Below, one piece after another: positions 10,083 to 63,441 of a DNA stretch of 64,000 bases. The notes under the pieces are model-generated. The model saw nothing but the letters and a program-made list of their open reading frames with translations, did not search any database and had not been told where the DNA came from. The DNA lies in contig JAQULK010000001.1 of NCBI GenBank assembly GCA_028718635.1, positions 152,626 through 216,625 of the forward strand. Direction: 5' to 3'. Position 1 is the first letter of the stretch. Every line of letters begins with the position of its first letter. Position numbers and translations under genes: made by a program. Source of the DNA: Minisyncoccota bacterium. Lineage in GTDB: Bacteria; Patescibacteriota; Minisyncoccia; Phycocordibacterales; UBA9973.

Positions 10083-12329
10083 ATGTTGAAAAATCAACCT
10101 GCCCGCCCTCCTAAGTCAGGAGCAGGCGGGGGAAGTATCTTTAAATTACATAAACCTTTTGAGCCAGCGGGGGATCAGCCAGTGGCTATCAGAGCGCTTG
10201 TGCAAGGTCTGTCTAAGGGAATGAAAAAGCAAACATTACTAGGAGCCACCGGCACAGGCAAGACTTTTACTATGGCAAATGTCATAGCTCAATATAACAA
10301 ACCAACTTTGGTAATAGCTCACAACAAAACCCTTGCCGCCCAGTTGGCCCAAGAATTTCGTGAATTTTTTCCAGATTCCGCAGTGCATTATTTTGTTTCT
10401 TATTATGATTATTATCAACCAGAAGCCTACATGCCTGCATCGGATACTTATATTGAAAAAGATGCCTCTATCAATAAAGAAATAGACATACTTCGCCATG
10501 CTTCCACGCAAGCGCTTTTAACAAGACGAGATGTGATTATAGTTGCCTCGGTTTCTTGTATTTATGGTTTGGGTTCTCCGGAAGAATATGAAAAAGTTAA
10601 TTTAAAACTTGAAATTGGTATGACGATGGACAGATTGACCTTAATGAAGAAATTAATTCAAATTCATTTTGAACGTACCAATGCAGATCTTACTCCTGGA
10701 ACTTTTCGTTCCATCGGTTCGCGGGTGGAATTTATGCCAGTTTCGGAAAGTATAATGTACCAAGTTGAAATGCAGGGCGGGAGAATTTCCAAAATAACAA
10801 AAGTTGATCCAGTTTCTTCTATTATAATTTCTGAAGAAAAGAATATTTTTATTTTCCCAGCAAAACATTTTATTACTGAAGATGCAAAAAAGAAAAAAGC
10901 GCTTATAGAAATTAAAAAAGAGCTAGCACAACAGCTAAAAAAATTTGAAAAAGAAGGGAAACTTTTAGAGGCTGAACGTATAAAAAGAAGAACTAATTAT
11001 GATTTGGCGATGATAAAAGAAGCTGGTTATTGCAACGGCATAGAAAATTATTCTAGGCACTTATCAGGGAAAAAAGAAGGCGAACCGCCAGAAACATTGC
11101 TTTCCTATTTCCCTAAGACTGGTTTTCTTACGATTATTGATGAATCGCATGTCACAATTCCACAACTACAAGGAATGTACGCAGGAGATGCTTCAAGAAA
11201 AAACACTTTAGTAGAATATGGATTTAGACTACCCTCCGCAAAAGATAACAGACCTTTAAAATTCAATGAGTTTGAAAATAGAATATATAATTCTATTTAT
11301 ACTTCCGCTACACCTGCAAAATTTGAGAAATCAGAAAGTAATCAAATAGTGGAACAAATTATTCGTCCGACAGGGCTTGTGGACCCAGAGACAATAGTGC
11401 GACCAGTTTCCGAAGGCGCATTTCCTCCCCTCCTTAACAAGGAGGGGAATGAGGGGAGGTTCTTAATTAATTCACCTCACCCCAACCCTCTCCTTAGTAA
11501 GGAGAGGGGGAATAACTACCCTGGCCAGATTCAAGATTTTATTCAAGAAACAGAAAAAACAATTGCAAAAGGTTTCAGGGTTCTAGCGACGACGTTGACA
11601 AAAAAAATGGCAGAGGATCTTTCTGTTTATTTAAAGGACAAAAAGATCAAAGCAGAATATCTACACAGTGATGTAAAAACGATAGACAGGATAAAAATTT
11701 TAACCCAATTCCGCAAAGGCGAATTTGATGTTTTAGTTGGCGTAAATTTACTTCGTGAAGGGTTGGATTTGCCAGAAGTTGCTCTGATTGGAATTCTAGA
11801 TGCCGACAAGGCAGGTTTTTTACGATCTGAAACATCTTTAATTCAAACGATTGGCCGTGCGGCTCGCAATAGTGAGGGTAAGGTTATTCTTTATGCCGAC
11901 ATTATGACTCCCGCGATGGATTATGCCCTAAAAGAAACTGCTCGTCGCAGAAATATTCAGCTTGCTTACAACAAAAAACATGGCATTACCCCAAAAACAA
12001 TTATGAAAAAGATAAAGGATATCACCGAAGAAATGGAAAGCGAACATGGGAAAGTTGTAAACGCCGAGCTCCAGCTTGATTTGGAAGTTTTTAAGCGCGC
12101 TTATGCGAAAGAATTTAAAAAAGAAAAGAAACAAAATCGGAAAATACCGAACACCAGCTTGGGGCAGTCTTATTTGTCTGATGAAGAGATAGGCAATTTA
12201 ATCTATGAAAAAATAATAAAAATGAAAGAAAAAGAAATGAACAAGGCAGTCAAAGAGTTAGATTTCGAGACTGCGGCGATACTAAGAGACGAGATCGGAG
12301 TTTTGCGAATGCGTACAGAAAAAAAATAG
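10083..12329 (+). CDS. uvrB: Excinuclease ABC subunit B
   Basis: GATGTGKTFTMA Walker A, helicase motifs, beta-hairpin region and a C-terminal UVR domain. Contains an in-frame insertion of about 32 aa between IVRP and GQIQDF. Confidence 0.95.
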   Translation: MLKNQPARPPKSGAGGGSIFKLHKPFEPAGDQPVAIRALVQGLSKGMKKQTLLGATGTGKTFTMANVIAQYNKPTLVIAHNKTLAAQLAQEFREFFPDSAVHYFVSYYDYYQPEAYMPASDTYIEKDASINKEIDILRHASTQALLTRRDVIIVASVSCIYGLGSPEEYEKVNLKLEIGMTMDRLTLMKKLIQIHFERTNADLTPGTFRSIGSRVEFMPVSESIMYQVEMQGGRISKITKVDPVSSIIISEEKNIFIFPAKHFITEDAKKKKALIEIKKELAQQLKKFEKEGKLLEAERIKRRTNYDLAMIKEAGYCNGIENYSRHLSGKKEGEPPETLLSYFPKTGFLTIIDESHVTIPQLQGMYAGDASRKNTLVEYGFRLPSAKDNRPLKFNEFENRIYNSIYTSATPAKFEKSESNQIVEQIIRPTGLVDPETIVRPVSEGAFPPLLNKEGNEGRFLINSPHPNPLLSKERGNNYPGQIQDFIQETEKTIAKGFRVLATTLTKKMAEDLSVYLKDKKIKAEYLHSDVKTIDRIKILTQFRKGEFDVLVGVNLLREGLDLPEVALIGILDADKAGFLRSETSLIQTIGRAARNSEGKVILYADIMTPAMDYALKETARRRNIQLAYNKKHGITPKTIMKKIKDITEEMESEHGKVVNAELQLDLEVFKRAYAKEFKKEKKQNRKIPNTSLGQSYLSDEEIGNLIYEKIIKMKEKEMNKAVKELDFETAAILRDEIGVLRMRTEKK
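11420..11515 (+). repeat. Two tandem GC-rich palindromic mini-elements (CCCCTCCTTAACAAGGAGGGG and CCTCACCCCAACCCTCTCCTTAGTAAGGAGAGGGGG) inserted in-frame in uvrB
   Basis: Perfect hairpin palindromes; they encode VSEGAFPPLLNKEGNEGRFLINSPHPNPLLSKERGNNYP, which is absent from canonical UvrB between RP and GQI. Confidence 0.8.
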
Positions 12330-18818: not shown

Positions 18819-18857
18819 AATCAAAATTTTTGCCGGTACGGATTTTTTGAAGCTTAA

Positions 18858-18925
18858 AAAATCCTGAAGTTGGCTCGCCGTCGCTCGCCAAACCCCTTAA
18901 AAACTTTATTCTCTAATTTTAGAAT
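18858..18925 (+). repeat. Intergenic repeat family R1 (CGGTACGGATTTTTTGAAGCTTAAAAAATCCTGAAGTT...GGCTCGCC...AAACCCCT), copy 1; copy 2 at 41197..41265
   Basis: 38-bp identical core containing a perfect 9-bp-stem hairpin GGATTTTTT-GAAGCTT-AAAAAATCC, with similar flanks; both copies lie immediately 3' of genes. Confidence 0.7.
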
Positions 18926-18954: not shown

Positions 18955-19020
18955 AAGCCTTGCGCAGGCTGACGAGCCGAGCAGTTCGCTGGCGCACCAG
19001 CGCCAGATAGATTGCTTTAT
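18955..19020 (+). repeat. Intergenic repeat family R2 (CCTTGCGCAGG...GACGAGC.GAGCAGTTCGCTGGC-hairpin-CCAGATAGATTGCTTT), copy 1; inverted copy at 20869..20960
   Basis: Collinear similarity after reverse complement. The central hairpin differs in sequence (CTGGCGCACCAGCGCCAG vs CTGGCAAAGCTTTGCCAG) but remains a palindrome in both copies. Confidence 0.65.
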
Positions 19021-19037
19021 AAGTTTTGATATTTATT

Positions 19038-20851: not shown

Positions 20852-21008
20852 TTCATCAAAAATTTATATTTTAAAAAGCAATCTATCTGGCAAAGCTTTG
20901 CCAGCGAACTGCTCGTCGATCAAGAAAATAATAGAAAGAGTACTTTCTTTATTTTCTAATCTCCTGCGCAAGGCTTTTAAAAATACAAATTTTTGACCAC
21001 CATATATT

Positions 21009-32849: not shown

Positions 32850-33344
32850 CTAAAACCCCAAGGCCTCCATTATTTTTTCTGAAGCATGTTCTTTCATTTC
32901 CACTTCTGGAATATTTTTTGAAAGCATTATGGAGTGAATATCTTCTGCTATTGCTTCAGCTATTGGGATAGAGAGAATAGGCATAAAAGCTCTTTCTGAA
33001 TGAATGAAAAGGATTGGTTTAATACCTGCTTCAGGATGTTCTCCTAATTGAACCCAAAAGGATTTTATATTTTCAAAAGGATAAAGGCGGTTTCTAATGA
33101 TCAAGCCCTTTTGATTTAATTCATAGGTGATCGTATCTGGTTTTTTAATGGCAAAAAATCCGAGCAGGATTCCAGCAAGAATAATTAAAGCTGCAAAAAA
33201 ATAATTTTCAAAAATAATAGAAGCGATGGAGCTTGTCACCACAATGATGCCGAGCGCCCAAAACCAATCCGAGGTTCGATCTTTCTCTTCGTATTCCAAG
33301 GCAGACCAAACTAATTTTTCATCTGATCTTTCGATTATTTCCAT
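32850..33344 (-). CDS. Hypothetical membrane protein (2 TM)
   Basis: ORF with two hydrophobic helices. Its ATG is provided by the end of a MITE-like repeat. Confidence 0.5.
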   Translation of the reverse strand: MEIIERSDEKLVWSALEYEEKDRTSDWFWALGIIVVTSSIASIIFENYFFAALIILAGILLGFFAIKKPDTITYELNQKGLIIRNRLYPFENIKSFWVQLGEHPEAGIKPILFIHSERAFMPILSIPIAEAIAEDIHSIMLSKNIPEVEMKEHASEKIMEALGF

Positions 33345-33466
33345 CCCGTTAGAAGCAGATCGCGATCAACTCGCGTATCTGATATATTAGGTTATTAATT
33401 TTCTCAATACTTGGTTTCATGTTTTTGTTTGTTTTAAAATTGCGATCGCGGCTTCTAACGGGATCC
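33342..33466 (-). mobile_element. MITE-like ~125-bp element, copy A, with ~22-bp terminal inverted repeats (ATCCCGTTAGAAGC.GATCGCGATC)
   Basis: About 85% identical over its full length to the reverse complement of 59112..59236; termini CATCCCGTTAGAAGC...GCTTCTAACGGGATCC. Confidence 0.7.
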
Positions 33467-35735: not shown

Positions 35736-37007
35736 ATGAGTTTTTTCCTGACAATTAAAATGACCGTGCGCAGTTTGCTCAGTAGAAAAGGAAGATCTTT
35801 TCTTACTATGCTTGGCATTGTGATCGGAGTGGCGGGGGTGATCATCATCATCTCTCTCGGCGCGGGAGCGCAATCATTAGTGCTTGGCCAAATCAATAAG
35901 CTCGGTTCCAATCTGCTCTCTATCCAACCGGGGAAAAGCGATCCCAAAGGACCGCCAGCGCAAGTTTTTGGCGTTGTCGTTACCACTTTAGTTGAATCTG
36001 ACGCCGAAGCTCTGCGTTCTCCTTCCCAAGTTCCGCATGCGATAGCTATCAATGCTATGGTCCGCGGAGCTGGCACGGTAACTTGGCAAAATAGAAGTAC
36101 GGATACGAGTTTTTTGGGTACAGATTATGGATATGATAAGGTGGTTAATTTTTCAATGAGTTCCGGAGAATTTATTAGTGAGACGGCAAACAAAGCAGGA
36201 ACAAAAGTGGTAGTGCTGGGTTCTAAAGTTGCCGATGCTTTATTTGGAGGTACGGGAGTAGATCCTATTGACCAAGTCATTAAAATTAGAAGTACTTCTC
36301 AGGCGGATGCCGGCGGAGTACCCTTGCGCATAGTTGGAGTTGTCGAAAAAAGAGGCAGTGCTTTTTTTCAAGATCAAGATGATCAGATATTTATCCCGCT
36401 TTCCGTGGCGCAGAGTGAGCTTCTTGGGATTCATTACTTACAAGCGATAAATGTAAAAGTAGATTCGGCAGACAATATCGATCAGACGATAAGCGATATA
36501 ACTTATACTTTAAAACAAAGACATCACATATTGTCAGATGATAATATTGATTTTACTATCAGGGACCAGGCGGCGGCTGCCGATATTTTAAAAACCATTA
36601 CCAGCGCATTGTCTTTATTCCTTACTTCTATGGCGGCTGTTGCTTTGGTCGTGGGTGGTATTGGAATTTTAAACATAATGCTTGCCACAGTGGCGGAGAG
36701 AACTCGCGAGATAGGGTTGCGCAAAGCAGTGGGTGCCACAAACTCAATGGTCATGAGGCAATTTTTACTTGAAGCGGGAACGTTGACTTTGATCGGCGGA
36801 GTGATCGGCATTATTGTCGGCGTTTTAGTGTCTTACCTGATGGCGCTTTTAATGAAGTATTTGGGTTTTGATTGGGATTTTGTTATTTCGATTACATCTG
36901 TTCTCTTGGCTGTCGGAGTGTCTGTTTTGACTGGAGTTATTTTCGGTTTATATCCATCATTAAAAGCTTCGAGATTAAATCCAATAGATGCATTAAGATA
37001 TGAATAA
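35736..37007 (+). CDS. ABC transporter permease (MacB-like periplasmic domain plus FtsX domain)
   Basis: N-terminal TM, large periplasmic domain, C-terminal FtsX-type four-helix region ending PIDALRYE. Confidence 0.85.
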   Translation: MSFFLTIKMTVRSLLSRKGRSFLTMLGIVIGVAGVIIIISLGAGAQSLVLGQINKLGSNLLSIQPGKSDPKGPPAQVFGVVVTTLVESDAEALRSPSQVPHAIAINAMVRGAGTVTWQNRSTDTSFLGTDYGYDKVVNFSMSSGEFISETANKAGTKVVVLGSKVADALFGGTGVDPIDQVIKIRSTSQADAGGVPLRIVGVVEKRGSAFFQDQDDQIFIPLSVAQSELLGIHYLQAINVKVDSADNIDQTISDITYTLKQRHHILSDDNIDFTIRDQAAAADILKTITSALSLFLTSMAAVALVVGGIGILNIMLATVAERTREIGLRKAVGATNSMVMRQFLLEAGTLTLIGGVIGIIVGVLVSYLMALLMKYLGFDWDFVISITSVLLAVGVSVLTGVIFGLYPSLKASRLNPIDALRYE

Positions 37008-37122
37008 TCCCGAACGAAATCGCGGACGCATAAAGTAAACAAAATTATGAAATTGATAAAATATATTATAAATAATAAAAAGGACAAACAAGCGTAAGCG
37101 TACGCGTCCTATTTCGTACGGG

Positions 37123-38367
37123 ATGAATAAAGCATTAAGACAATCTATTAAAGCGCTACGAGCCAATAAAGGAAGAACTTTTTTGACGATGCTTGGAATT
37201 ATTATTGGCATTGGAACGGTTGTTTTGGTGCTTTCTGCCGGGGCAGGCTTTCGTTCGTTGATTGATTCCCAAGTCGCAGTGTATGGAAGCAACACTTTGT
37301 TTGTCCAAACCCACATTCCTTCTGCCACAAAACAAAGAAGCGATGCAACGGATGGTCCCGGAGGCGCAATCGTCGGAGTTGTTATTACTAGTTTTAAGCA
37401 AAGAGACTTAGATACTATTAATAAATTGCACAATGTGGCTGGAAGTTATGGTTTTATCACCGGACAAGCCGTTGCGCAATATAGAGACAATAAAAAAAGT
37501 TCTATCTATTATGGAGTCGGGGCGGACAGATTTAATTTTGATAAAACAAAACTTTCTTCCGGAAGATTTTTTTCTAAAGTAGAAGATGCGAGCGGAGCGC
37601 AAGTAGCGATCCTCGGGGCTACCGTCGCCGAAGATCTTTTTGGACAAGATGATCCAATCGGAAAATCTTTTAAACTCGGCGGTTTAAATTTTCAGGCGAT
37701 CGGAGTCTATGCTCCGCAAGGAGCGCTCTCTGAGAGCGATGGTATAGTTTTTATTCCGCTTAATACAGCGCAGAAAAAATTACTTGGTGTAAATTATATC
37801 ACTATCGCAGTGGTGGCTTTGAACGATATGAATGAAGCGGATGCTACCGCCGAGCAAATAAAAATTGCGCTTAGAAACAATCACAATATTACTGATCCAG
37901 CCAAAGATGATTTCATTGTTCAGACACAAGCGCAAGCCTTGGAAACTTTCAACGTTATTTTCGATGGCATAACTTATCTGCTTATCGCTATCGCCGCTAT
38001 CTCTCTTTTGGTGGGAGGCGTTGGTATTATGAACATTATGTACGTCGTGGTCACAGAACGAACAGCAGAAATCGGGCTCAAGAAAGCTCTTGGCGCGCGC
38101 GAGTCGGATATTTTAAAAGAGTTTCTAGTAGAAGCGGTGCTGGTCACTATTGCGGGAGGTCTGATAGGGATAGGCCTCGGATCATTTTTGGGTTTTATTA
38201 TTTCTCTCATTGCCAAAGGAGCAAACCTCGCTTGGACATTTTCCGTGCCGGTCTATGCCATTGTGCTTGCGTTTAGCGTCTCGGCAATAATCGGAATATC
38301 CTTCGGGGTTTTTCCAGCCAAATCAGCCGCCCAAATGGATCCCGTGGAGGCCATGCGATATGAATAA
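37123..38367 (+). CDS. ABC transporter permease (MacB/FtsX family, second copy)
   Basis: Same architecture as the preceding permease; ends PVEAMRYE. Confidence 0.85.
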   Translation: MNKALRQSIKALRANKGRTFLTMLGIIIGIGTVVLVLSAGAGFRSLIDSQVAVYGSNTLFVQTHIPSATKQRSDATDGPGGAIVGVVITSFKQRDLDTINKLHNVAGSYGFITGQAVAQYRDNKKSSIYYGVGADRFNFDKTKLSSGRFFSKVEDASGAQVAILGATVAEDLFGQDDPIGKSFKLGGLNFQAIGVYAPQGALSESDGIVFIPLNTAQKKLLGVNYITIAVVALNDMNEADATAEQIKIALRNNHNITDPAKDDFIVQTQAQALETFNVIFDGITYLLIAIAAISLLVGGVGIMNIMYVVVTERTAEIGLKKALGARESDILKEFLVEAVLVTIAGGLIGIGLGSFLGFIISLIAKGANLAWTFSVPVYAIVLAFSVSAIIGISFGVFPAKSAAQMDPVEAMRYE

Positions 38368-40599: not shown

Positions 40600-40720
40600 G
40601 CGGTATATTATAACAGATAATTATTTTTGTGCTACCCCGACACTTATTTTTGCAAGGTGCCAAGGGCACGCAACAAAGTTGCATTGCAAAGATAAGTGTG
40701 GGGGTGCTAGTATTCTCAAT

Positions 40721-41179
40721 ATGAATACAGGGAGATTTTTGGGAATTGATTTTGGGACAAAAAGGATAGGAGTGGCTATTTCAGACGAAAATCACACCTT
40801 GGCTTTTCCAAAAGAAATCGTTTTGAATAACCCAAATACTTTTAAAAAGCTCGGCGAGATAATAAAAAAAGAAAAAGTGGCAGAAATCGTGGTCGGAGAA
40901 TCTGTGGATTTTTCAGGGAAATTAAATGCTTTATCCGGTAGGATTGAAGTTTTTATTTTGGAATTGAAAGAGCATTTCAAATTGCCGGTGCATAAGCAAA
41001 AAGAATTCTTAACTTCAGTGGAGGCTCGCCGATATGAAGATCTTGGCGGGCAAGCTAGAAAATCTAATGCTCATAGCAGATTGAAGCAAATAAAGTCTGG
41101 CCGAATAGATGCCTCCGCGGCGGCTCTCATCTTACAGCGATATTTAGATAAAATAAATATCGTAAATCATGAAACATAA
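40721..41179 (+). CDS. ruvX: Putative pre-16S rRNA nuclease / Holliday junction resolvase-like protein YqgF (RuvX)
   Basis: FLGIDFGTKRIGVAISDE N-terminal RNase H-like motif. Start set at the ATG at 40721 rather than the ORF-track start at 40598. Confidence 0.8.
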   Translation: MNTGRFLGIDFGTKRIGVAISDENHTLAFPKEIVLNNPNTFKKLGEIIKKEKVAEIVVGESVDFSGKLNALSGRIEVFILELKEHFKLPVHKQKEFLTSVEARRYEDLGGQARKSNAHSRLKQIKSGRIDASAAALILQRYLDKINIVNHET

Positions 41180-41302
41180 ACTTTTCTTCGGTACGGATTT
41201 TTTGAAGCTTAAAAAATCCTGAAGTTCTCGGCTCGCCAGCCTCGAAACCCCTGCGAAAAGTTATGTTTCGTGATTTAGAGACAAATAGGTTATAATATTT
41301 GT

Positions 41303-45524: not shown

Positions 45525-48142
45525 TGAATGACGCTCGCCAATTTTGTCATCCTGAACTTGTTTCAGGATCTAATGCGTTTGCCAAAATAATAAAACTTTT
45601 CCGTTTCATTTTTTTCTTCTCGATATTTCTGGGAAGCTTTTTTGTTTTGGCAAACGAAGCAAGCGCGGCGACGTATTATGTGGATGCGACTCTTGGAAAG
45701 GATACATATAATGGTATAACCACAACTATAAATGATGGAGCAAGTGAAGGTCCATGGAAAACACTAACTAAAGTAAATGCCGCGCTGAATGCCGCTTCTA
45801 TTCATGCTGGTGATAGTGTTTTATTTAAAGCAGGGGAGACTTTCTTTGGCTATTTGTATGTTAAGGTAACGGGAACGGTAGGAAATATATTAACATTTGA
45901 TTCCTATGGAAGTGGAAATAAACCTATAATCGACGCTACTGGAAATAATAGCGGTATCGATCTTCGTGGAATAAATTATGTTACGTTTAATAATTTGGAT
46001 GTTAGAAATGCAACATTCCAAGGATACTTTTTTCTCAATGGAAATGACCACATAACAATAAATAATGGAAGTATATCTTCTTCTGCAAAGGCTATCCATC
46101 TCTATAACAATACAATTTCAAATCTAACAATTTCAAATCTAAATGCCAGTAATAATACATATGGTATTTATGGATTTGCCGGGGTTACTGTTAACACATT
46201 GTCCATATCCAATAGCCATTTCGACGACAACACATCAGAAGGTTTTTTCACCGATGGCACTGCGAACGGGAGTAATTTTACGATAACAGATACCACCATG
46301 TCCCGTAATGGGATCGGATCTGATAAAAATGGATTTTTACTACAAGGGACCGGCAGTACAGTTATCCTTACCAGGGTAACATCAGCCAACAACGGAGGGG
46401 ATGGATTTGGTGTCCATAACACTTGGATTGGTGTTATTTTTGATTATTGTACGGCGGATACTAACGGAACAGACGGGATAGGATCAGATGGAGACGGATT
46501 CAGTTTCCATGAGACTTCTTCTGGAATAATCAGGTATTCAATCAGCAAAAATAATTTAAAAACTGCGATTGCTCACGTTAATAGCTCCGCTGTTGAAATG
46601 TATTATGATCTTTTTTATCATGCAACCAATGGCACCTTGCCGCTTGTTTTATTACAAAATACTGGAAATCATAAATTATATAATAATATTATTTACAGTG
46701 GAAGTCAGACTGGTGATGCAGTAAGCGTTGAAGGGACCGTTGATATGCAAAACAATATAATAGATGGTTTCAATCGTGGCCTTATAAAAACTGGAGGAAC
46801 AATATCCAATGACCATGATATTATTTATGGAGTATTAACTTCTAATTATGTTGGTATTTCTGCCGGTGCTTATTCAATTATACAGGATCCAAAATTTTTT
46901 AATTCCAGTATTTATAACTTTTCCCTTCTCCCCACTTCCCCCGCCATCGACTCTGGCACCGATGTCTCATTAACCACCGACTACGCCGGCAATTCCATCT
47001 ACGGTACGCCCGACATCGGCGCTTATGAATACCAGCCGCCATATACCATGGGCACGGATGCAGTAAACACTTCCACCAGTGTCAGAATGTACGGAGACGA
47101 AAAGTTCAGAAACAAAACCGCCACCACCACGGAAACCACGGCTGATCTCTCAATTACCATTCCCGACTCGGATAAAACCAAGTGGCTGGACATAGCAGTT
47201 TCCACCTGGGACAACTCCGGAACTTATCACAAAACCTGGACGGAAAACACTACCAGCACCATTACCAACACCCTCCATACCATCGGAGACCTGGAACCCA
47301 ACAAATACTACAATGTGTCCGTGGATTCCGTTCTGGGAAACAACATTACCGGCGATAACTGTTCAAACGGCCTCTGTCTTTCCAACGCGGAAGGTAAAAT
47401 ATCTTTTACCTATACTGGTTCATATTCCGAACACACCTTTGACGTGGAAGAAGGAGATAATACCGCCCCCATCCGTTCCGCCGGTTTGCCTTCCGGCAGT
47501 CAACCTGCTGGCACAACGCAAGTAACAATGTCTTTGACCACCGACGAAAACGCCACCTGCAAATACTCCACCTCTGCCGACACCGCTTACGCTTCCATGA
47601 CCGATACCTTTACCACAACTGGCACCCAATCCCATTCCACCACCATTTCCGGTCTCTCCAACGGCAATACATACAATTACTATGTCCGCTGCACTGACGG
47701 CTCAAATGCTAACAGCAACGATTACCCTATTTCTTTTTCCATTACTAACCCTACCGCGCATTCTTCAGGCAACAGTGCTCAGAGTCGAATCAACAATCTG
47801 CTCTCCATGGGCAACTACACCCAAGCGCAACAATTGGCTAATCAATACAATATTTCAATTCCAGTAATTACCACCCCGCCTACAGCACCCCTCCTGAATC
47901 AAGGAGGGGAAAGAAGTGTTAATGCTTACAACTTTGGTCTCTCTGTTCTCAAAAAAGGAAGCAAAGGTGAAGCTGTCAAAGAACTCCAGAAGTTCTTAAA
48001 CCAAGATCTGAAACTAAACTTGAAAATAGATGGCATCTTGGGATCAAAAACAACTATGGCTATCAAACAATACCAAAAAGCGCATAATCTAAAAGTGGAT
48101 GGGGTAGTGGGGGAGAAGACGAAGGGGAGGATGGGGGTGTGA
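45524..48142 (+). CDS. Secreted right-handed beta-helix (pectate-lyase-like repeat) protein with C-terminal peptidoglycan-binding domain
   Basis: Hydrophobic signal-like segment then cleavage-like ANEASAA; many N.T.S..N..I/..N repeats typical of parallel beta-helix; C-terminal PG_binding_1-like segment (KGEAVKELQKFLNQ...IDGILGSKTTMAIKQYQ). GTG start preceded by a (GA)7 repeat. Confidence 0.7.
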   Translation: MNDARQFCHPELVSGSNAFAKIIKLFRFIFFFSIFLGSFFVLANEASAATYYVDATLGKDTYNGITTTINDGASEGPWKTLTKVNAALNAASIHAGDSVLFKAGETFFGYLYVKVTGTVGNILTFDSYGSGNKPIIDATGNNSGIDLRGINYVTFNNLDVRNATFQGYFFLNGNDHITINNGSISSSAKAIHLYNNTISNLTISNLNASNNTYGIYGFAGVTVNTLSISNSHFDDNTSEGFFTDGTANGSNFTITDTTMSRNGIGSDKNGFLLQGTGSTVILTRVTSANNGGDGFGVHNTWIGVIFDYCTADTNGTDGIGSDGDGFSFHETSSGIIRYSISKNNLKTAIAHVNSSAVEMYYDLFYHATNGTLPLVLLQNTGNHKLYNNIIYSGSQTGDAVSVEGTVDMQNNIIDGFNRGLIKTGGTISNDHDIIYGVLTSNYVGISAGAYSIIQDPKFFNSSIYNFSLLPTSPAIDSGTDVSLTTDYAGNSIYGTPDIGAYEYQPPYTMGTDAVNTSTSVRMYGDEKFRNKTATTTETTADLSITIPDSDKTKWLDIAVSTWDNSGTYHKTWTENTTSTITNTLHTIGDLEPNKYYNVSVDSVLGNNITGDNCSNGLCLSNAEGKISFTYTGSYSEHTFDVEEGDNTAPIRSAGLPSGSQPAGTTQVTMSLTTDENATCKYSTSADTAYASMTDTFTTTGTQSHSTTISGLSNGNTYNYYVRCTDGSNANSNDYPISFSITNPTAHSSGNSAQSRINNLLSMGNYTQAQQLANQYNISIPVITTPPTAPLLNQGGERSVNAYNFGLSVLKKGSKGEAVKELQKFLNQDLKLNLKIDGILGSKTTMAIKQYQKAHNLKVDGVVGEKTKGRMGV

Positions 48143-53585: not shown

Positions 53586-53684
53586 AGAGGTTGTTTATGT
53601 TAGATTAAATCGACTACTTGTCCCGTTAGAAAATCAGCGGACTGGTAAGAAGTAGTAAGTTTATTATTTAAATTTTTTAATGGG

Positions 53685-54095
53685 ATGGCAGGAAATAAAA
53701 TCAATAAAATAAAATTCACTCCGGTAGATATCGAAGAGCGAAAGAAGCTTAATTTCAAGGCTGGAGATACTGTTTCTGTTTCGTCAAAGATTATAGATGA
53801 AAAAGGCAAGTCTCGTTTTCAAGTTTTTGAGGGTATCGTGCTTGCTAGAAAACATGGCACTGAAGCGGGTGCTACTTTTACCGTCAGAAAGGTTTCTTCT
53901 GGTGTTGGAGTAGAAAGAATTTTTCCGTTATATTCTCCAATGATAGGGGAAATCAAAATAACTAAAAGGTCTCGCGCTCGCAGGTCAAAACTTTACTATA
54001 TCCGTACCAAGGCAGTCAAAGATGTTCGCAAAAAAATGCGTTCCATCGCTCATTCAGAGGAAGCAAACGATGCAGTAGAAAAAGTTGCAGAATAA
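53685..54095 (+). CDS. rplS: 50S ribosomal protein L19
   Basis: Typical L19 core (FKAGDTVSV...RFQVFEGIV...) with a basic C-terminal extension. Confidence 0.9.
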   Translation: MAGNKINKIKFTPVDIEERKKLNFKAGDTVSVSSKIIDEKGKSRFQVFEGIVLARKHGTEAGATFTVRKVSSGVGVERIFPLYSPMIGEIKITKRSRARRSKLYYIRTKAVKDVRKKMRSIAHSEEANDAVEKVAE

Positions 54096-57664: not shown

Positions 57665-59023
57665 TTATAAAAACGAAACGAGTAGCGCTATGGCAAATAC
57701 GCCCATTAATACAAAAGCGGCCCAGAGTCCAAGCTTTGAGGCTAGACCGCTTTTATGCTCGCCCATTACATCATTTCGGCTAGAAAGTCTTGTAATAAAA
57801 TAAATTAGAGGGACTGCTGCGACTCCGTTGAATACGGCGGTAAAGATAAGCGCCTTGATAGGATCAAAACCTATAAAATTAAAAACCAGACCAATCAAGG
57901 TGCCGACAATAATCACAAAATAAAAATTGCGCGATTGTTTGAATTTGCGGAACAGTCCTTCTCGCCAGCTAAAGGTCTCAGCCACTGCGTAGGCAGAACT
58001 TCCCGCCAACACCGGTATGCTCTGAAGACCGATGCCAATTATTCCGATGGAAAAAATAAGCTTCGCCAGAAAGCCAGCGTTTGGAAATGTGTGTACTAAT
58101 GGTTCAAGAGCGCGGGCGGCATCAGCAGCCGTATTAATATTCGTCACTCCATTTTGATTGAGCACGAGAGCTCCCACTACGATGATAAACCATGCAGTGA
58201 CGTTGGAAAAAAGCATACCTACGGCATTATCAATACGCAGATTTTTTAAATAAGATTTTGTTAATTTAGGAATGCCACCGCTTTGGGGCATTTTATGTTT
58301 AGCGATACTGTCCTCGACAACGTTGCTCGTCTGCCAGAAGAATAAATAAGGCGAGATAGTTGTGCCAAAAATTCCGACTATGATGTACAGAAAAGATCTA
58401 TTGAATTGGACCTGGGGGATGAGAGTAGATTTTAATACATCAACCCAAGGTACGGCAATTAAAAATGCTGTAATGAAATAGGCAAATAATGCCATTGCCA
58501 GCCATTTTAAAATACGAATATACGTGCGATAAGGAATAAGCACTTCTAATAATATTATAAGGATAGCAAAACCAACCGCTAAAACAGAAAATGGAATAAT
58601 CGGAATAATAAGCCGAGTGCTGGCTGCCATTGCTCCGATGTCTGAACCGATATTGAGAGTATTAGCGCACACCACGAGCAATACGATCGGATACAATACT
58701 ATTTTGGGATAACGTTCACGGACCACGGCCGCCAATCCTTTGCCGGTGACGGCTCCTATGCGCATGCAAGCTTCTTGCACGGCGGTCATAAGCGGAAGAG
58801 TGAAAAGCATAGTCCAGGGCAAGGAGAACCCGAATTGCGCTCCCGCTTGGGAATATGTAGCGATTCCAGACGGATCGTCATCGGCTGCTCCTGTGACAAT
58901 CCCTGGACCGAGGATTCTTAAAAATCTCCCGAATGGTTTCGGAGTTTTTCTTTTTTTCCTTGTTTTATCTGGTACGGCACTTTGTTCTGTGTCAGCGATT
59001 AATTCATCAGGAAATTTAACCAT
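57665..59023 (-). CDS. mntH: NRAMP-family divalent metal transporter
   Basis: GPGIVTGAADDDPSGIATYSQAGAQFGF motif, 11 TM. Start set at the ATG at 59023. The longer GTG-initiated ORF overlaps an upstream hairpin. Confidence 0.85.
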   Translation of the reverse strand: MVKFPDELIADTEQSAVPDKTRKKRKTPKPFGRFLRILGPGIVTGAADDDPSGIATYSQAGAQFGFSLPWTMLFTLPLMTAVQEACMRIGAVTGKGLAAVVRERYPKIVLYPIVLLVVCANTLNIGSDIGAMAASTRLIIPIIPFSVLAVGFAILIILLEVLIPYRTYIRILKWLAMALFAYFITAFLIAVPWVDVLKSTLIPQVQFNRSFLYIIVGIFGTTISPYLFFWQTSNVVEDSIAKHKMPQSGGIPKLTKSYLKNLRIDNAVGMLFSNVTAWFIIVVGALVLNQNGVTNINTAADAARALEPLVHTFPNAGFLAKLIFSIGIIGIGLQSIPVLAGSSAYAVAETFSWREGLFRKFKQSRNFYFVIIVGTLIGLVFNFIGFDPIKALIFTAVFNGVAAVPLIYFITRLSSRNDVMGEHKSGLASKLGLWAAFVLMGVFAIALLVSFL

Positions 59024-59055
59024 ATATGAAGTATAGCGAATTTTTTTCTTTTGGT

Positions 59056-59092
59056 ATACCCCCACACTTATTGTTGATTTAATAAGTGTGGG
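59056..59092. repeat. Perfect 17-bp-stem hairpin ATACCCCCACACTTATT-gttgattt-AATAAGTGTGGGGGTAT; a longer interrupted relative lies at 40626..40709
   Basis: Both copies lie in divergent promoter regions; the 40626 copy has arms TGCTACCCCGACACTTATT / AATAAGTGTGGGGGTGCTAG with a structured 45-nt insert between them. Confidence 0.65.
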
Positions 59093-59111
59093 GGTATAGC
59101 ATAGAAGTGAT

Positions 59112-59236
59112 GGATCCCGTTAGAAGCCGCGATCGCAATTTAAAAACAAACAAAATATGAAATCAAATATTTGGGAAATTAATAATATAAAACATAAGAT
59201 ACGTGAGTTGATCGCGATCTGCTTCTAACGGGATGG
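59112..59236 (+). mobile_element. MITE-like ~125-bp element, copy B
   Basis: GGATCCCGTTAGAAGCCGCGATCGC...GATCGCGATCTGCTTCTAACGGGATGG; its 3' terminus supplies the murB ATG. Confidence 0.7.
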
Positions 59237-60246
59237 AAATTTTAAAGAACTACAATCTTTCTAAGTTAAACACCCTCGGTATCAACGTCGAGGCGAAATT
59301 TTTCGTCGAAGTGCAATCTGAAAAAGATCTGAAAGAACTTTTTGTTTTGCCCGAATTTAAAAATAATAAGAAAATGTTCCTCGGGGGAGGGAGCAATGTT
59401 TTATTTACCAAAGATTTTGACGGAATGGTGGTTTTAAATAAATTAAGAGGCATAGAAATCACGGAAGAAGATTCTGAAAATGTTTATATTCGCGGAGCGG
59501 GCGGAGAACTTTGGCATGATTTGGTAATGTTTGCTGTCAATCATGGATATTGGGGCATAGAAAATTTATCATTCATTCCTGGGACTGTCGGTGCTGCGCC
59601 GGTACAAAACATAGGAGCATATGGACTAGAGCTCAAGGATGTGCTTTTTAACGTTGAAACTTTTGAAATTGAAACAGGAATAAAAAGGATTTTTAGCAAA
59701 GAAGAGTGCAAGTTGGGATACCGGGACAGTGTTTTTAAAAATAAATTAAAAAATAAATATTTTATTTCAGCTATTACTTTAAAATTAAGCAAAAAAGAAA
59801 AGCGAAACATAAAATATAAAATTTTGTCAGATTTTTTAGAAAAAAATAAAATAGAAATTAAGAGCCCAAAAGATATTAGCGATGCTGTGATGTGTATACG
59901 CCAAAGCAAATTACCAGACCCAAAAATTATAGGCAATGCCGGGAGTTTTTTTAAAAATGTTTTTGTGGGGAAAGAACAGCTGCAAGTTTTGCAAATAAGT
60001 TATCCGGAAATCCCTCATTTTGAAAATAATGGAATTATAAAAATTCCTGCTGCTTGGTTGGTTGAACAGTGCGGATGGAAAGGACACAGAGTGGGGAATG
60101 TCGGGGTGCATGAAAAGCAAGCACTAGTTTTAGTAAATTACGGAGAGGTGAAAGGTTTAGAGATTTTGGAGTTAGCAAACAAAATAATTGCATCCGTAAA
60201 AGAAAAATTCGGACTGGATTTAGTGCCCGAAGTTAATATTGTGTAA
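59233..60246 (+). CDS. murB: UDP-N-acetylenolpyruvoylglucosamine reductase
   Basis: FAD-binding domain with FLGGGSNVLF and a C-terminal MurB domain. Start codon is embedded in the terminal repeat of a MITE-like element. Confidence 0.85.
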   Translation: MEILKNYNLSKLNTLGINVEAKFFVEVQSEKDLKELFVLPEFKNNKKMFLGGGSNVLFTKDFDGMVVLNKLRGIEITEEDSENVYIRGAGGELWHDLVMFAVNHGYWGIENLSFIPGTVGAAPVQNIGAYGLELKDVLFNVETFEIETGIKRIFSKEECKLGYRDSVFKNKLKNKYFISAITLKLSKKEKRNIKYKILSDFLEKNKIEIKSPKDISDAVMCIRQSKLPDPKIIGNAGSFFKNVFVGKEQLQVLQISYPEIPHFENNGIIKIPAAWLVEQCGWKGHRVGNVGVHEKQALVLVNYGEVKGLEILELANKIIASVKEKFGLDLVPEVNIV

Positions 60247-61645: not shown

Positions 61646-62039
61646 TTATTTTTTAGTGGAGCGGGTTGAGCGTGATATAATATCTGCAAGGAGTTCCTTC
61701 TACATTGCATTATGTTTGTACAAATAGTTTTACACATTGCACATTATGACTTCCGACTCGGAGTCATGATATTATTAAAATATGAAAACCCGACCCAACC
61801 CGCGACCCCACTTCATTGTATTTCTTTTACATGGCATCAAGAGATTAACTACCTCGCTAAACAATCCCAACATTTTCAAACCAGCCCTATTGTTACTTTG
61901 CTCGGATGGGGTAGTGGGGGAGAAGACGAAGGGGAGGATGAATGGGGATATTTAAAGTGCGTTGGACAAGACTCTAACTTGCTTAGCTTGATTACTTGTT
62001 GTTATAATTAAATTATTAAAAATCTAATTAATCTTAATT
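61646..62039 (+). other. GC-richer non-coding or degraded region downstream of the AbiE pair, holding a displaced 36-bp fragment of the PG-binding domain gene tail and a strong hairpin
   Basis: GATGGGGTAGTGGGGGAGAAGACGAAGGGGAGGATG at 61906..61941 is identical to 48104..48139 (3' end of the CDS 45524..48142) but in a different frame. The ORF 61712..62011 has low-complexity translation. Hairpin ATGACTTCCGACTCGGAGTCAT at 61748..61773. Confidence 0.5.
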
Positions 62040-63372: not shown

Positions 63373-63441
63373 AAAGACCTCACCCCAGCCCTCTCCTTGT
63401 TAAGGAGAGGGGGGTTCATTTGACTATTTGAGCAAAAAGAG

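Follow-up and report, generated by a model that had tools for sequence, protein, structure and literature searches.

Among bacterial MITEs (miniature inverted-repeat transposable elements), Correia/CREE of Neisseria, ERIC of the enterobacteria and RUP of the pneumococcus are described examples (PMC3184786). The element considered here, a 119-nt repeat (copy B) situated at the start codon of murB in a 64-kb stretch of contig JAQULK010000001.1 from an ultra-small Minisyncoccota bacterium (the whole of that stretch being termed the window), belongs to a family that resembles them in its size of ~100-150 bp, its terminal inverted repeats, short target duplication and want of a transposase gene, and in its many dispersed copies, which form a stable hairpin when transcribed and often lie 5' of genes. 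Unlike those families, which are characterised by a TA duplication, variable gene distance and either orientation, it is found on a start codon in over 90% of copies, regenerates the ATG by joining its terminal base to the duplicated target, keeps to one orientation, and frequently carries an upstream open reading frame (uORF) ending 4 nt before the gene. Neisseria REP2 and Borrelia IR repeats have been reported with an ATG initiation codon fused to different downstream open reading frames (ORFs), a point of likeness; REP2 has been described with a promoter, ribosome-binding site and ATG, the review mentioning no terminal inverted repeats, target duplications or empty sites (PMC3184786). A REP2-type expression repeat was considered for the present element and rejected: the window copies are without ribosome-binding-site or promoter signal, and the ATG pre-existed and was duplicated.

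Other described systems share single traits with this family. MIRUs are intergenic repeats in which small ORFs overlap at their ends with the neighbouring genes of a polycistron; they consist of 40-100-bp units, often in tandem, with imperfect terminal inverted repeats and no defined target duplication (PMC3184786). The likeness is confined to the overlapping small ORFs, MIRUs not being tied to the start codons of monocistronic or leaderless genes. Supply and co-workers reportedly linked MIRUs to translational coupling in 1997. Rickettsia palindromic elements are mobile, keep to the reading frame of their host gene and are translated within its protein (PMC10969869); they too are tolerated within the expression unit of essential genes. 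An in-frame insertion of that kind was rejected here, there being no in-frame fusion among 106 copies, a UAA in the 3' arm that ends one frame, and ATG-to-ATG distances of 123 and 124 nt in the two principal copies of the window. Termination-reinitiation, 70S scanning and leaderless initiation are modes described (PMC9031893) for settings in which a stop codon lies a few nucleotides from the next AUG, or in which a 5'-terminal AUG is used without a Shine-Dalgarno (SD) sequence.

The string GGATCCCGTTAGAAGCCGCGATCGC...GATCGCGATCTGCTTCTAACGGGATGG, which occupies positions 59112-59236 of the window and contains copy B, lies in the spacer between the divergent genes mntH and murB, a spacer of 209 nt when counted from the mntH ATG at 59023. 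Comparison was made with relatives sharing the gene order Sua5 - Nramp(-) - murB(+) - FKBP, namely L121 and L122 (MurB 88% identical) and L123 (85%). The L123 spacer of 46 nt (...ttttggTATAgcatagaagtgATGGAAATT / ...ttttggTATAgcatagaagtgATGGAAATTTT) contains neither hairpin nor element, those of L121 and L122 (...ttttggTATA[CCCACACACTTATTGATTAAATAAGTGTGTGGG]TATAgcatag...ATGGAAATT) contain the hairpin only, and the window contains both, the hairpin being followed by gaagtgATGGA[TCCCG...CGGGA]TGGAAATTTT. On alignment of the spacers the empty sites read gaagtgATGGA/AATTTT, the slash marking the point of copy B insertion, and direct duplications of empty-site sequence flank both insertions: TATA in the case of the hairpin, TGGA in that of copy B. 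Copy B is a non-autonomous inverted-repeat transposable element which inserted in the first codons of murB after the split from relatives with 85-88% identical MurB, duplicating TGGA and, by way of its own terminal A, rebuilding a working ATG. The hairpin is a second, independent insertion, a 36-nt palindrome that duplicated TATA, the start of a -10-like box. The spacer of the window is accordingly made up of 46 + 40 (palindrome plus TATA) + 123 nt (element plus TGGA), inserted DNA contributing 163 nt (78%).

A previous sequence-only reading of this locus had proposed an element copy and a perfect-stem hairpin in the spacer, and both are present after small corrections to their coordinates. 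Its interpretation as mobile DNA is supported by the empty sites and target duplications seen in relatives, and comparison of the mntH-murB spacer, in which close relatives are without the features, favours mobile DNA over an ancient regulatory sequence. The hairpin, placed at 59056..59092, does start at 59056 but ends at 59097; its 17-bp perfect stem holds as 59056-59072 / 59081-59097, extending to 18 bp once the flanking T/A is counted; the gap to the element is ~16 nt rather than 30; and a longer relative of the hairpin is real, although it begins at 40630 and not at 40626. The region was taken to be 210 nt built almost entirely from two repeat families, whereas the measured length is 209 nt with the inserted share given above. 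The element was likewise credited with supplying the murB ATG, of which only the A, preceded by CGGG, is its last base, the TG being furnished by the right-hand copy of TGGA (59234-59237). The label 'MITE-like' was sound as to mobility, but undersells a Patescibacteria-wide family found nearly always on start codons and in one orientation.

The principal features are collected in Table 1. The 14-nt arm sequence ATCCCGTTAGAAGC occurs exactly four times in the window as against a shuffle mean of 0.34. The old murB ATG survives 123 nt upstream of the rebuilt one. Copy B folds into a long hairpin (-35.3 kcal/mol, z = -4.4) in which the outer helix, P1, pairs the A and U of the murB AUG. The decoy ORF that starts at the old ATG (59110-59160) has 16 codons, its TGA overlapping the ATG of the uORF as ATGA, and the uORF in turn ends in the arrangement UAA-CGGG-AUG(murB). 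A 337-aa twin of the murB product, 100% identical, is named UDP-N-acetylmuramate dehydrogenase in a Candidatus Pacebacteria metagenome-assembled genome (MAG), and since most MurB homologues are also 337 aa in length the start at 59233 is considered correct.

Table 1. Coordinates of the features discussed, as positions in the window.
Feature	Position	Strand	Basis or remark
Element copy B, 119 nt	59115..59233	+	exact arms, fold, absence from L121/L122/L123
Original murB start ATGGA, now decoy ATG	59110..59114	+	sequence up to here identical to empty sites
Left copy of TGGA target duplication	59111-59114	+	
Copy B P1 arms	T+CCCGTTAGAAGC 59115-59127; GCTTCTAACGGG+A 59221-59233		
Copy B P2	59128-59134 with 59210-59216		
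Copy B 3' bulge ATCT	59217-59220		
uORF inside copy B, 23 codons (MKSNIWEINNIKHKIRELIAICF) + TAA at 59226-59228	59157..59228	+	ends 4 nt before murB ATG
ATCCCGTTAGAAGC, two inverted pairs	copy B 59114-27 / 59221-34; copy A 33343-56 / 33451-64		
murB	59233..60246	+	ORF of 337 aa
mntH (Nramp), divergent neighbour of murB	57665..59023	-	Pfam, sequence
Element copy A, 120 nt	33344..33463	-	exact arms, fold, absence from relatives
Copy A decoy ATGGA	33468-33464	-	
Copy A rebuilt ATG	33344-33342	-	starts conserved 164-aa hypothetical protein, ORF to 32850
Left TATA copy of hairpin duplication	59055..59058	.	single TATA in L123 empty site (ttttggTATAgcatag)
Hairpin core, 36-nt palindrome CCCCCACACTTATT-gttgattt-AATAAGTGTGGGGG	59059..59094	.	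absent from L123
Right TATA copy	59095..59098	.	rebuilds -10-like TATAGC (59095-59100) upstream of old murB ATG
Hairpin arms and loop	ATACCCCCACACTTATT 59056-59072; gttgattt 59073-59080; AATAAGTGTGGGGGTAT 59081-59097		
Longer hairpin relative	40630..40709	.	arm ACCCC[G/C]ACACTTAT shared; core 40635-40704 Y-shaped palindrome
Diverged family member, arms CCCGAACGAAAT / ATTTCGTACGGG	37008..37123	+	weak nhmmer match, sequence, fold
Short degenerate family member tCCCGTTAGAAAAT...ATTTTTTAATGGGa	53621..53685	+	sequence, fold

Copy A presents the same picture at an unrelated gene. TGGA is duplicated there also; the fold is again a long hairpin (-36.7 kcal/mol, z ~ -4.9), the outer helix of which pairs the A and U of the downstream ATG; and the old and rebuilt ATGs are 124 nt apart, a distance which, like the 123 nt of copy B, is not a multiple of three. 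In place of the two ORFs of copy B there is a single 39-codon ORF, running from the decoy ATG to a TAA 4 nt before the gene. The empty sites, read directly from the sequences of L197, L198 and L199, whose 164-aa proteins are 88-93% identical, present an uninterrupted TACAAT/TATAAT-N6-ATGGAAAT. Copies A and B, ~88% identical over the aligned stretch including flanks, can be aligned from ATGGATCCCG... to ...CGGGATGGAAAT and nowhere outside, and in the minimum-free-energy folds of both a local 3' hairpin competes with P2.

A scan of species-representative genomes for CCCGTTAGAAGC-N(78-108)-GCTTCTAACGGG returned at least 120 loci. Among the matches listed, ~100 carried labels of Patescibacteria lineages (Saccharibacteria, Paceibacteria, Microgenomatus, Nomura-, Kaiser-, Jorgensen-, Levybacteria, Lipton-, Sungii-, Taylor-, Terry-, Zambryski- and Moranbacteria), 10 had generic labels and 8 had labels from outside the candidate phyla radiation (CPR), several MAGs holding 3-8 loci each. 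Looser matching in the DNA fetched around these loci defined a superfamily with lengths of 70-275 nt (mode 110-119 nt) and invariant ends, [T/C]CCCGTTAGA...TCTAACGGG[A/G], and this superfamily, to which copy B belongs, is spread through the Patescibacteria. The arms form 13 perfect bp, T-CCCGTTAGAAGC / GCTTCTAACGGG-A, followed by an inner helix of 6-7 bp. Arm positions 10-12 co-vary (AGC/GCT 128, AAT/ATT 8, AGT/ACT 7, GAC/GTC 4, and others), and an alignment of 87 sequences gave a 14-bp outer and a 6-bp inner helix with compensatory changes, one pair of P2 being AU in 43 and GC in 32. The interior is highly variable, 132 copies falling into 126 clusters; the longest internal ORF is of no more than 43 codons, and none encodes a transposase. 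The family thus displays the small size, the terminal inverted repeats, the target duplication with empty sites, and the copies dispersed within and between genomes of a MITE. Against Rfam, tRNAs alone reached gathering scores, and permissive E-values yielded no more than generic hairpin (miRNA-type) noise. In the literature searched, nothing relevant came up on the arm sequence, on MITEs of the CPR or on MITEs at start codons. The family is apparently undescribed.

Tandem or nested arrays, in which only the duplicated target separates the elements, were observed at L022 6498-6650, L037 1003-1170, L043 1151-1437 and L090 3871-4010, as in ...CTCTAACGGG ATGAAT CCCGTTAG... or GTTGAC-element-GTTGAC-element, and therefore point to repeated insertion at the same rebuilt site. 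Near-identical flanks and interiors were also encountered across species-level genomes (L020 52-168 / L105 2675-2791; L076, L081, L109 and L118), which suggests that some insertions are old and have persisted at orthologous genes; in L076 decay has turned the old ATG into ACG. No BLAST match was obtained in plasmid or phage records in the search for an autonomous partner. Viral contigs yielded only four short variants of the element; those of the IMG/VR contigs L201 (3735-3828) and L202 (1012-1090), of GC 0.50-0.61, have the same ends, and one short viral variant lies on an ATG with a TGAA duplication and has AAAGGAGG directly 5' of the 3' arm.

The superfamily is nearly always placed exactly on a start codon and always in the same orientation, essential genes included. 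When copies were oriented by their internal asymmetry alone, an ATG directly followed the 3' arm in 94 of 103, and none had a gene start solely at the 5' arm, an orientation towards the gene of 94:0; after the remainder had been oriented by their flanks, 109 of 118 abutted an ATG, 96 of these 109 opening at least 100 codons or reaching the end of the flank. In 86 of the 109, moreover, an ATG lies 5-7 nt to the left of the element, and over the 167 positions that separate these left ATGs from their elements, 156 agree with the downstream gene (93.7 +/- 4.9 with permuted partners). When T...A (142 copies) or C...G (15 copies) was adopted as the ends of the element, a direct repeat of exactly 4 bp flanked 96 of 161 copies, as against 25.6 with permuted partners. 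The commonest duplications were TGAA (46) and TGGA (22), with TGTA and TGCA also found. A T-N-N-A target is suggested by the usual A at the fourth duplicated base and by the lack of TGAT, TGCC and TGTC, all of which the window does have among its gene starts. That a 4-bp duplication is combined with the element's own terminal base is supported by L046, where a C...G copy on an ATG has given a rebuilt start of GTG, and by several copies that end in a base other than the one preceding their left repeat. Other C...G copies occur away from start codons, at GTTGAC, GTTTA or GTCAA, and often in MAGs with non-CPR labels (L008, L029, L051 and L090, labelled Planctomycetota, Bdellovibrionales and Elusimicrobiota); they could be accounted for by errors of binning or by a sister subfamily that occupies another niche.

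Twenty downstream proteins, sampled at random, were checked with Pfam. Domains were recognised in 17, the matches where checked mostly beginning at about residue 1-5, and the proteins were unrelated to each other (L2, L13, L18, L23, DnaB, AlaRS, RNase J, FtsW, trigger factor, NrdR, YchF and fructose-bisphosphate aldolase among them), and therefore constitute no regulon. The presence of the element on essential genes means that it must be compatible with their expression.

The expression context of the window was examined in 55 long ORFs. In 19 of them a -10-like hexamer stops 7-8 nt short of the ATG, against a background of ~2 per position; SD-like motifs are rare. TATACT-N6-ATG of mntH (59035-59030, minus strand, ending 7 nt 5' of the ATG), TACAAT-N6-ATG of the copy A gene, and RuvX conform to the same -10-to-ATG pattern; TATAAT-like hexamers precede ATGs in the window at, for example, 6276, 33531, 41303, 44649, 54328 and 59023. 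Only 7 of 107 decoy ATGs adjacent to elements have an SD-like motif. These sequence patterns suggest that leaderless or near-leaderless mRNAs may be widespread in this Paceibacteria genome, which looks to be largely SD-less.

Within the element, an ORF that begins with ATG, extends for 18 codons or more and stops at the 3'-arm UAA, 4 nt before the gene ATG (UAA at -7), was present in 63 of 132 copies, as compared with 6.4 +/- 2.4 (maximum 15-16) when loops were shuffled and 6 when interiors were reverse-complemented; after de-replication the figures were 59 of 126 copies and 6.2 expected. These uORFs are of 19-29 codons, with the ATG 30-49 nt into the element in 50 of 63, and their peptide sequence is not conserved. 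Translation from the decoy ATG would reach the same UAA in 21 of 106 copies (4.3 expected), and in none of the 106 is the decoy ORF fused in frame with the gene or run on into it. Chains of ORFs with a nearby restart ATG reach the gene in 44 (17.5 +/- 4.0 expected). In both window copies the putative relay is unbroken.

The explanation that best accounts for these observations overall, to which we assign a probability of about 0.6, is that of a start-codon-dwelling MITE tolerated through a built-in translational relay. A putative trans-acting transposase would make a ~4-bp staggered cut at T-N-N-A-like sites. In compact, largely SD-less or leaderless genomes, ribosomes would arrive at start codons either by way of the mRNA 5' end or by way of a stop codon upstream, and as the outer helix is predicted to bury the rebuilt AUG, they would have to be delivered there; essentially the only survivable insertion would then be one that leaves ribosomes a way through. 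A short ORF would begin at the old ATG or at an AUG of the A-rich loop, and its translation could melt the 14+6-bp hairpin burying the real AUG before stopping at the UAA of the 3' arm, 4 nt before the rebuilt ATG, where the ribosome would re-initiate. The element would be a selfish insertion equipped with its own translational relay, and such a relay would explain the fixed orientation. The UAA-CGGG-AUG arrangement and the AUGA overlap of copy B are like those of known termination-reinitiation and leaderless settings; unlike known coupling, the device would travel within a transposable element and be set up anew wherever that element inserts.

Several considerations weigh against this explanation. 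A uORF, decoy relay or SD-like motif is lacking in 41 of the 132 copies (31%); the old ATG stands in random frame to the UAA (33/27/26); and the copies are related, so that the shuffle statistics overstate their independence. Leaderless transcription is deduced from the positions of -10 boxes only. The length of the flanking repeat varies, being 3 bp in 19 and 5 bp in 9 of 161 copies. Neither a transposase nor an autonomous partner was found in plasmid and phage records or in the ~1 Mb of fetched loci, where there were no arm pairs more than 300 nt apart. Should the target consist of T-N-N-A only, selection alone may not explain an occupancy of start codons above 90%.

A bolder version of the relay is offered tentatively, the balance lying somewhat against it. 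It would make the element an obligate 'start-codon parasite' of SD-independent bacteria and a mobile translational relay, the base of the helix joining the old and rebuilt AUGs, a uORF or a 70S shunt or hop handing ribosomes to the gene, and companion palindromes acting likewise on -10 boxes.

It is unlikely that the family is a purely selfish MITE, the transposase of which recognises a start-codon-like A/TGNA (the slash again marking the insertion point), with hairpin and uORF as by-products of inverted repeats and an A-rich core, and with genes expressed despite the element. The bias of the fourth duplicated base towards A and the duplications missing from the set would be expected of such a target preference, and the copies devoid of any relay feature, together with the random frame of the old ATG, also speak for it. 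A symmetric inverted repeat, however, does not explain the 94:0 orientation, nor would by-products account for the ~10-fold enrichment of uORFs over shuffled and reverse-complemented interiors, for the want of in-frame or run-on decoy ORFs, or for carriage of the element by essential genes.

Less probable again is exaptation as a translational regulator, with the AUG concealed by P1 and translation made to depend on an alternative pairing (internal GCAGAU with 3' AUCUGC), on a protein or on temperature. P1 does include the A and U of the AUG, the local 3' hairpin of the minimum-free-energy folds does compete with P2, a GCAGR segment recurs, by reading of the sequences, in copies without a uORF, and the ends are extremely conserved across classes. 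On the other hand, the downstream genes share no function, the interior is as variable as described above, no Rfam family matches, and the alternative pairing is a predicted one. A riboswitch or curated cis-regulatory RNA was rejected on the same functional disparity and for want of an Rfam covariance-model match.

It is decidedly improbable that the element supplies new expression signals, whether an outward promoter or a ribosome-binding site, as reported for Neisseria Correia or REP2. A GGAG/GAGG-type motif does occur in 20 of 132 copies within 36 nt 5' of the last nine bases, and short variants with AAAGGAGG directly before the 3' arm exist (L066 at 4307, and L201), but the resultant SD-to-ATG spacing of 11-15 nt is long, the window copies possess neither an SD-like motif nor a promoter-like site beyond those of shuffles, and no -10 positional signal was detected relative to the uORF ATG.

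Very little probability attaches to a cis-regulatory RNA or operator that the host encodes and inherits vertically, such as a metal-responsive site for mntH: a divergent promoter region beside a metal transporter gene and stable folds would suit it, but it is contradicted by absence from close syntenic relatives, by the exact target duplications and by the same elements at many unrelated genes. Equally slight is the prospect of a functional micro-protein of 23-39 aa, for although both window copies and about half of the family have the ORF, the 19-29-residue peptides are I/N/K-rich and unconserved outside the residues dictated by the arms, copies A and B differ by ~8 non-synonymous and 2 synonymous changes (codon count of the alignment), and the 23/39-aa ORF was rejected as a conserved protein.

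An integron attC site was also considered and rejected. In such sites R'' (RYYYAAC) precedes R' (GTTRRRY) and the AAC is the outermost part on the 5' side; here the order is reversed on either strand (CCCGTTAGAA...TTCTAACGGG) and each 7-mer misses the consensus at one position.

The findings are of some consequence. At one gene pair a -10-like box and a start codon have each been split by mobile DNA and regenerated by target duplication, and the element responsible for the latter represents a Patescibacteria-wide family without an Rfam entry and not found in the literature searched. That it keeps so strictly to one position and one orientation on the start codons of essential genes implies that some unusual constraint or mechanism is at work. 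Were the relay real, the elements would amount to natural experiments on SD-independent initiation, leaderless or by re-initiation, in a large and mostly uncultured bacterial diversity; if the 'start-codon parasite' version were true, they would provide a probe of CPR translation start and possibly a genome-wide layer of translational control. In practical terms, decoy ATGs and uORFs contributed by the elements can mislead gene callers, and the presence or absence of an element at a site is a potential marker for closely related CPR lineages.

The palindromic hairpin of the spacer repeats the theme of insertion into an expression signal regenerated by duplication. TATA stands on both sides of the palindrome in L121, L122 and the window, and with it the window hairpin attains an 18-bp perfect stem (59055-72 / 59081-98) at -37.2 kcal/mol, z = -8.4. 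Its longer relative in the window (-46.1 kcal/mol, z = -6.6) is flanked by direct repeats of TGCTA (40630-34 and 40705-09), the right-hand one overlapping a -10-like TAGTAT (40708-13) that ends 8 nt before the RuvX ATG (40721). A scan of metagenomes for CCC[N]CACACTTAT-loop-ATAAGTGTG[N]GGG gave 73 loci, reduced to 55 distinct insertions, of which 41 had exact 4-bp flanking repeats (TATA 26, TTTA 10, TAAA 5); in 19 of the 55 the repeat is the start of a -10-like hexamer with an ATG 4-9 nt further on. REP and REPIN sequences, mobilised by RAYT, are short palindromes, rich in GC, that duplicate no target and accompany an IS200/IS605-like RAYT gene; this hairpin differs from them in the exact 4-bp duplication (41/55) and in having an empty site.

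The window holds at least four copies of the element family, namely A, B and two diverged members, and the genes downstream of these encode MurB, the conserved 164-aa protein, a MacB/FtsX-type permease and ribosomal protein L19. The member at 37008-37123 is situated between the stop of the upstream gene and the permease gene (37123-38367; Pfam), and has the same fold, with P1 closing on the AUG. It occupies what was formerly a stop/start overlap (37000-37123), the 8-nt ATGAATAA being whole on both sides; the duplication at 37000-37007, apparently of 7-8 bp, is longer than the usual 4 bp and has preserved both the upstream stop and the downstream start. The member at 53621-53685 abuts the ATG of the L19 gene (53685-54095; Pfam).

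Other repeats are also present in the window. The HIP1-like motif GCGATCGC was rejected as a genome-wide feature, only three being present in the window, two of them inside element copies A and B. Inverted repeats of 45 nt (18978-19022 / 20871-20915) were considered as the ends of an insertion sequence and rejected, since they flank mutM/fpg and ruvA with no transposase; inverted repeats of 30 nt (18939-68 / 20963-92) lie beside them, the pairs being 1.85 kb apart, and together they may represent another palindromic repeat family in opposite orientations. Elsewhere there are an exact 37-nt G-rich direct repeat (48097-48133 / 61904-61940), GC-rich hairpins of the CCCTCTCCTT..AAGGAGAGGG type (11424-11510 / 63377-63413), and an 87-nt repeat of 76% identity (18823-18909 / 41178-41264).

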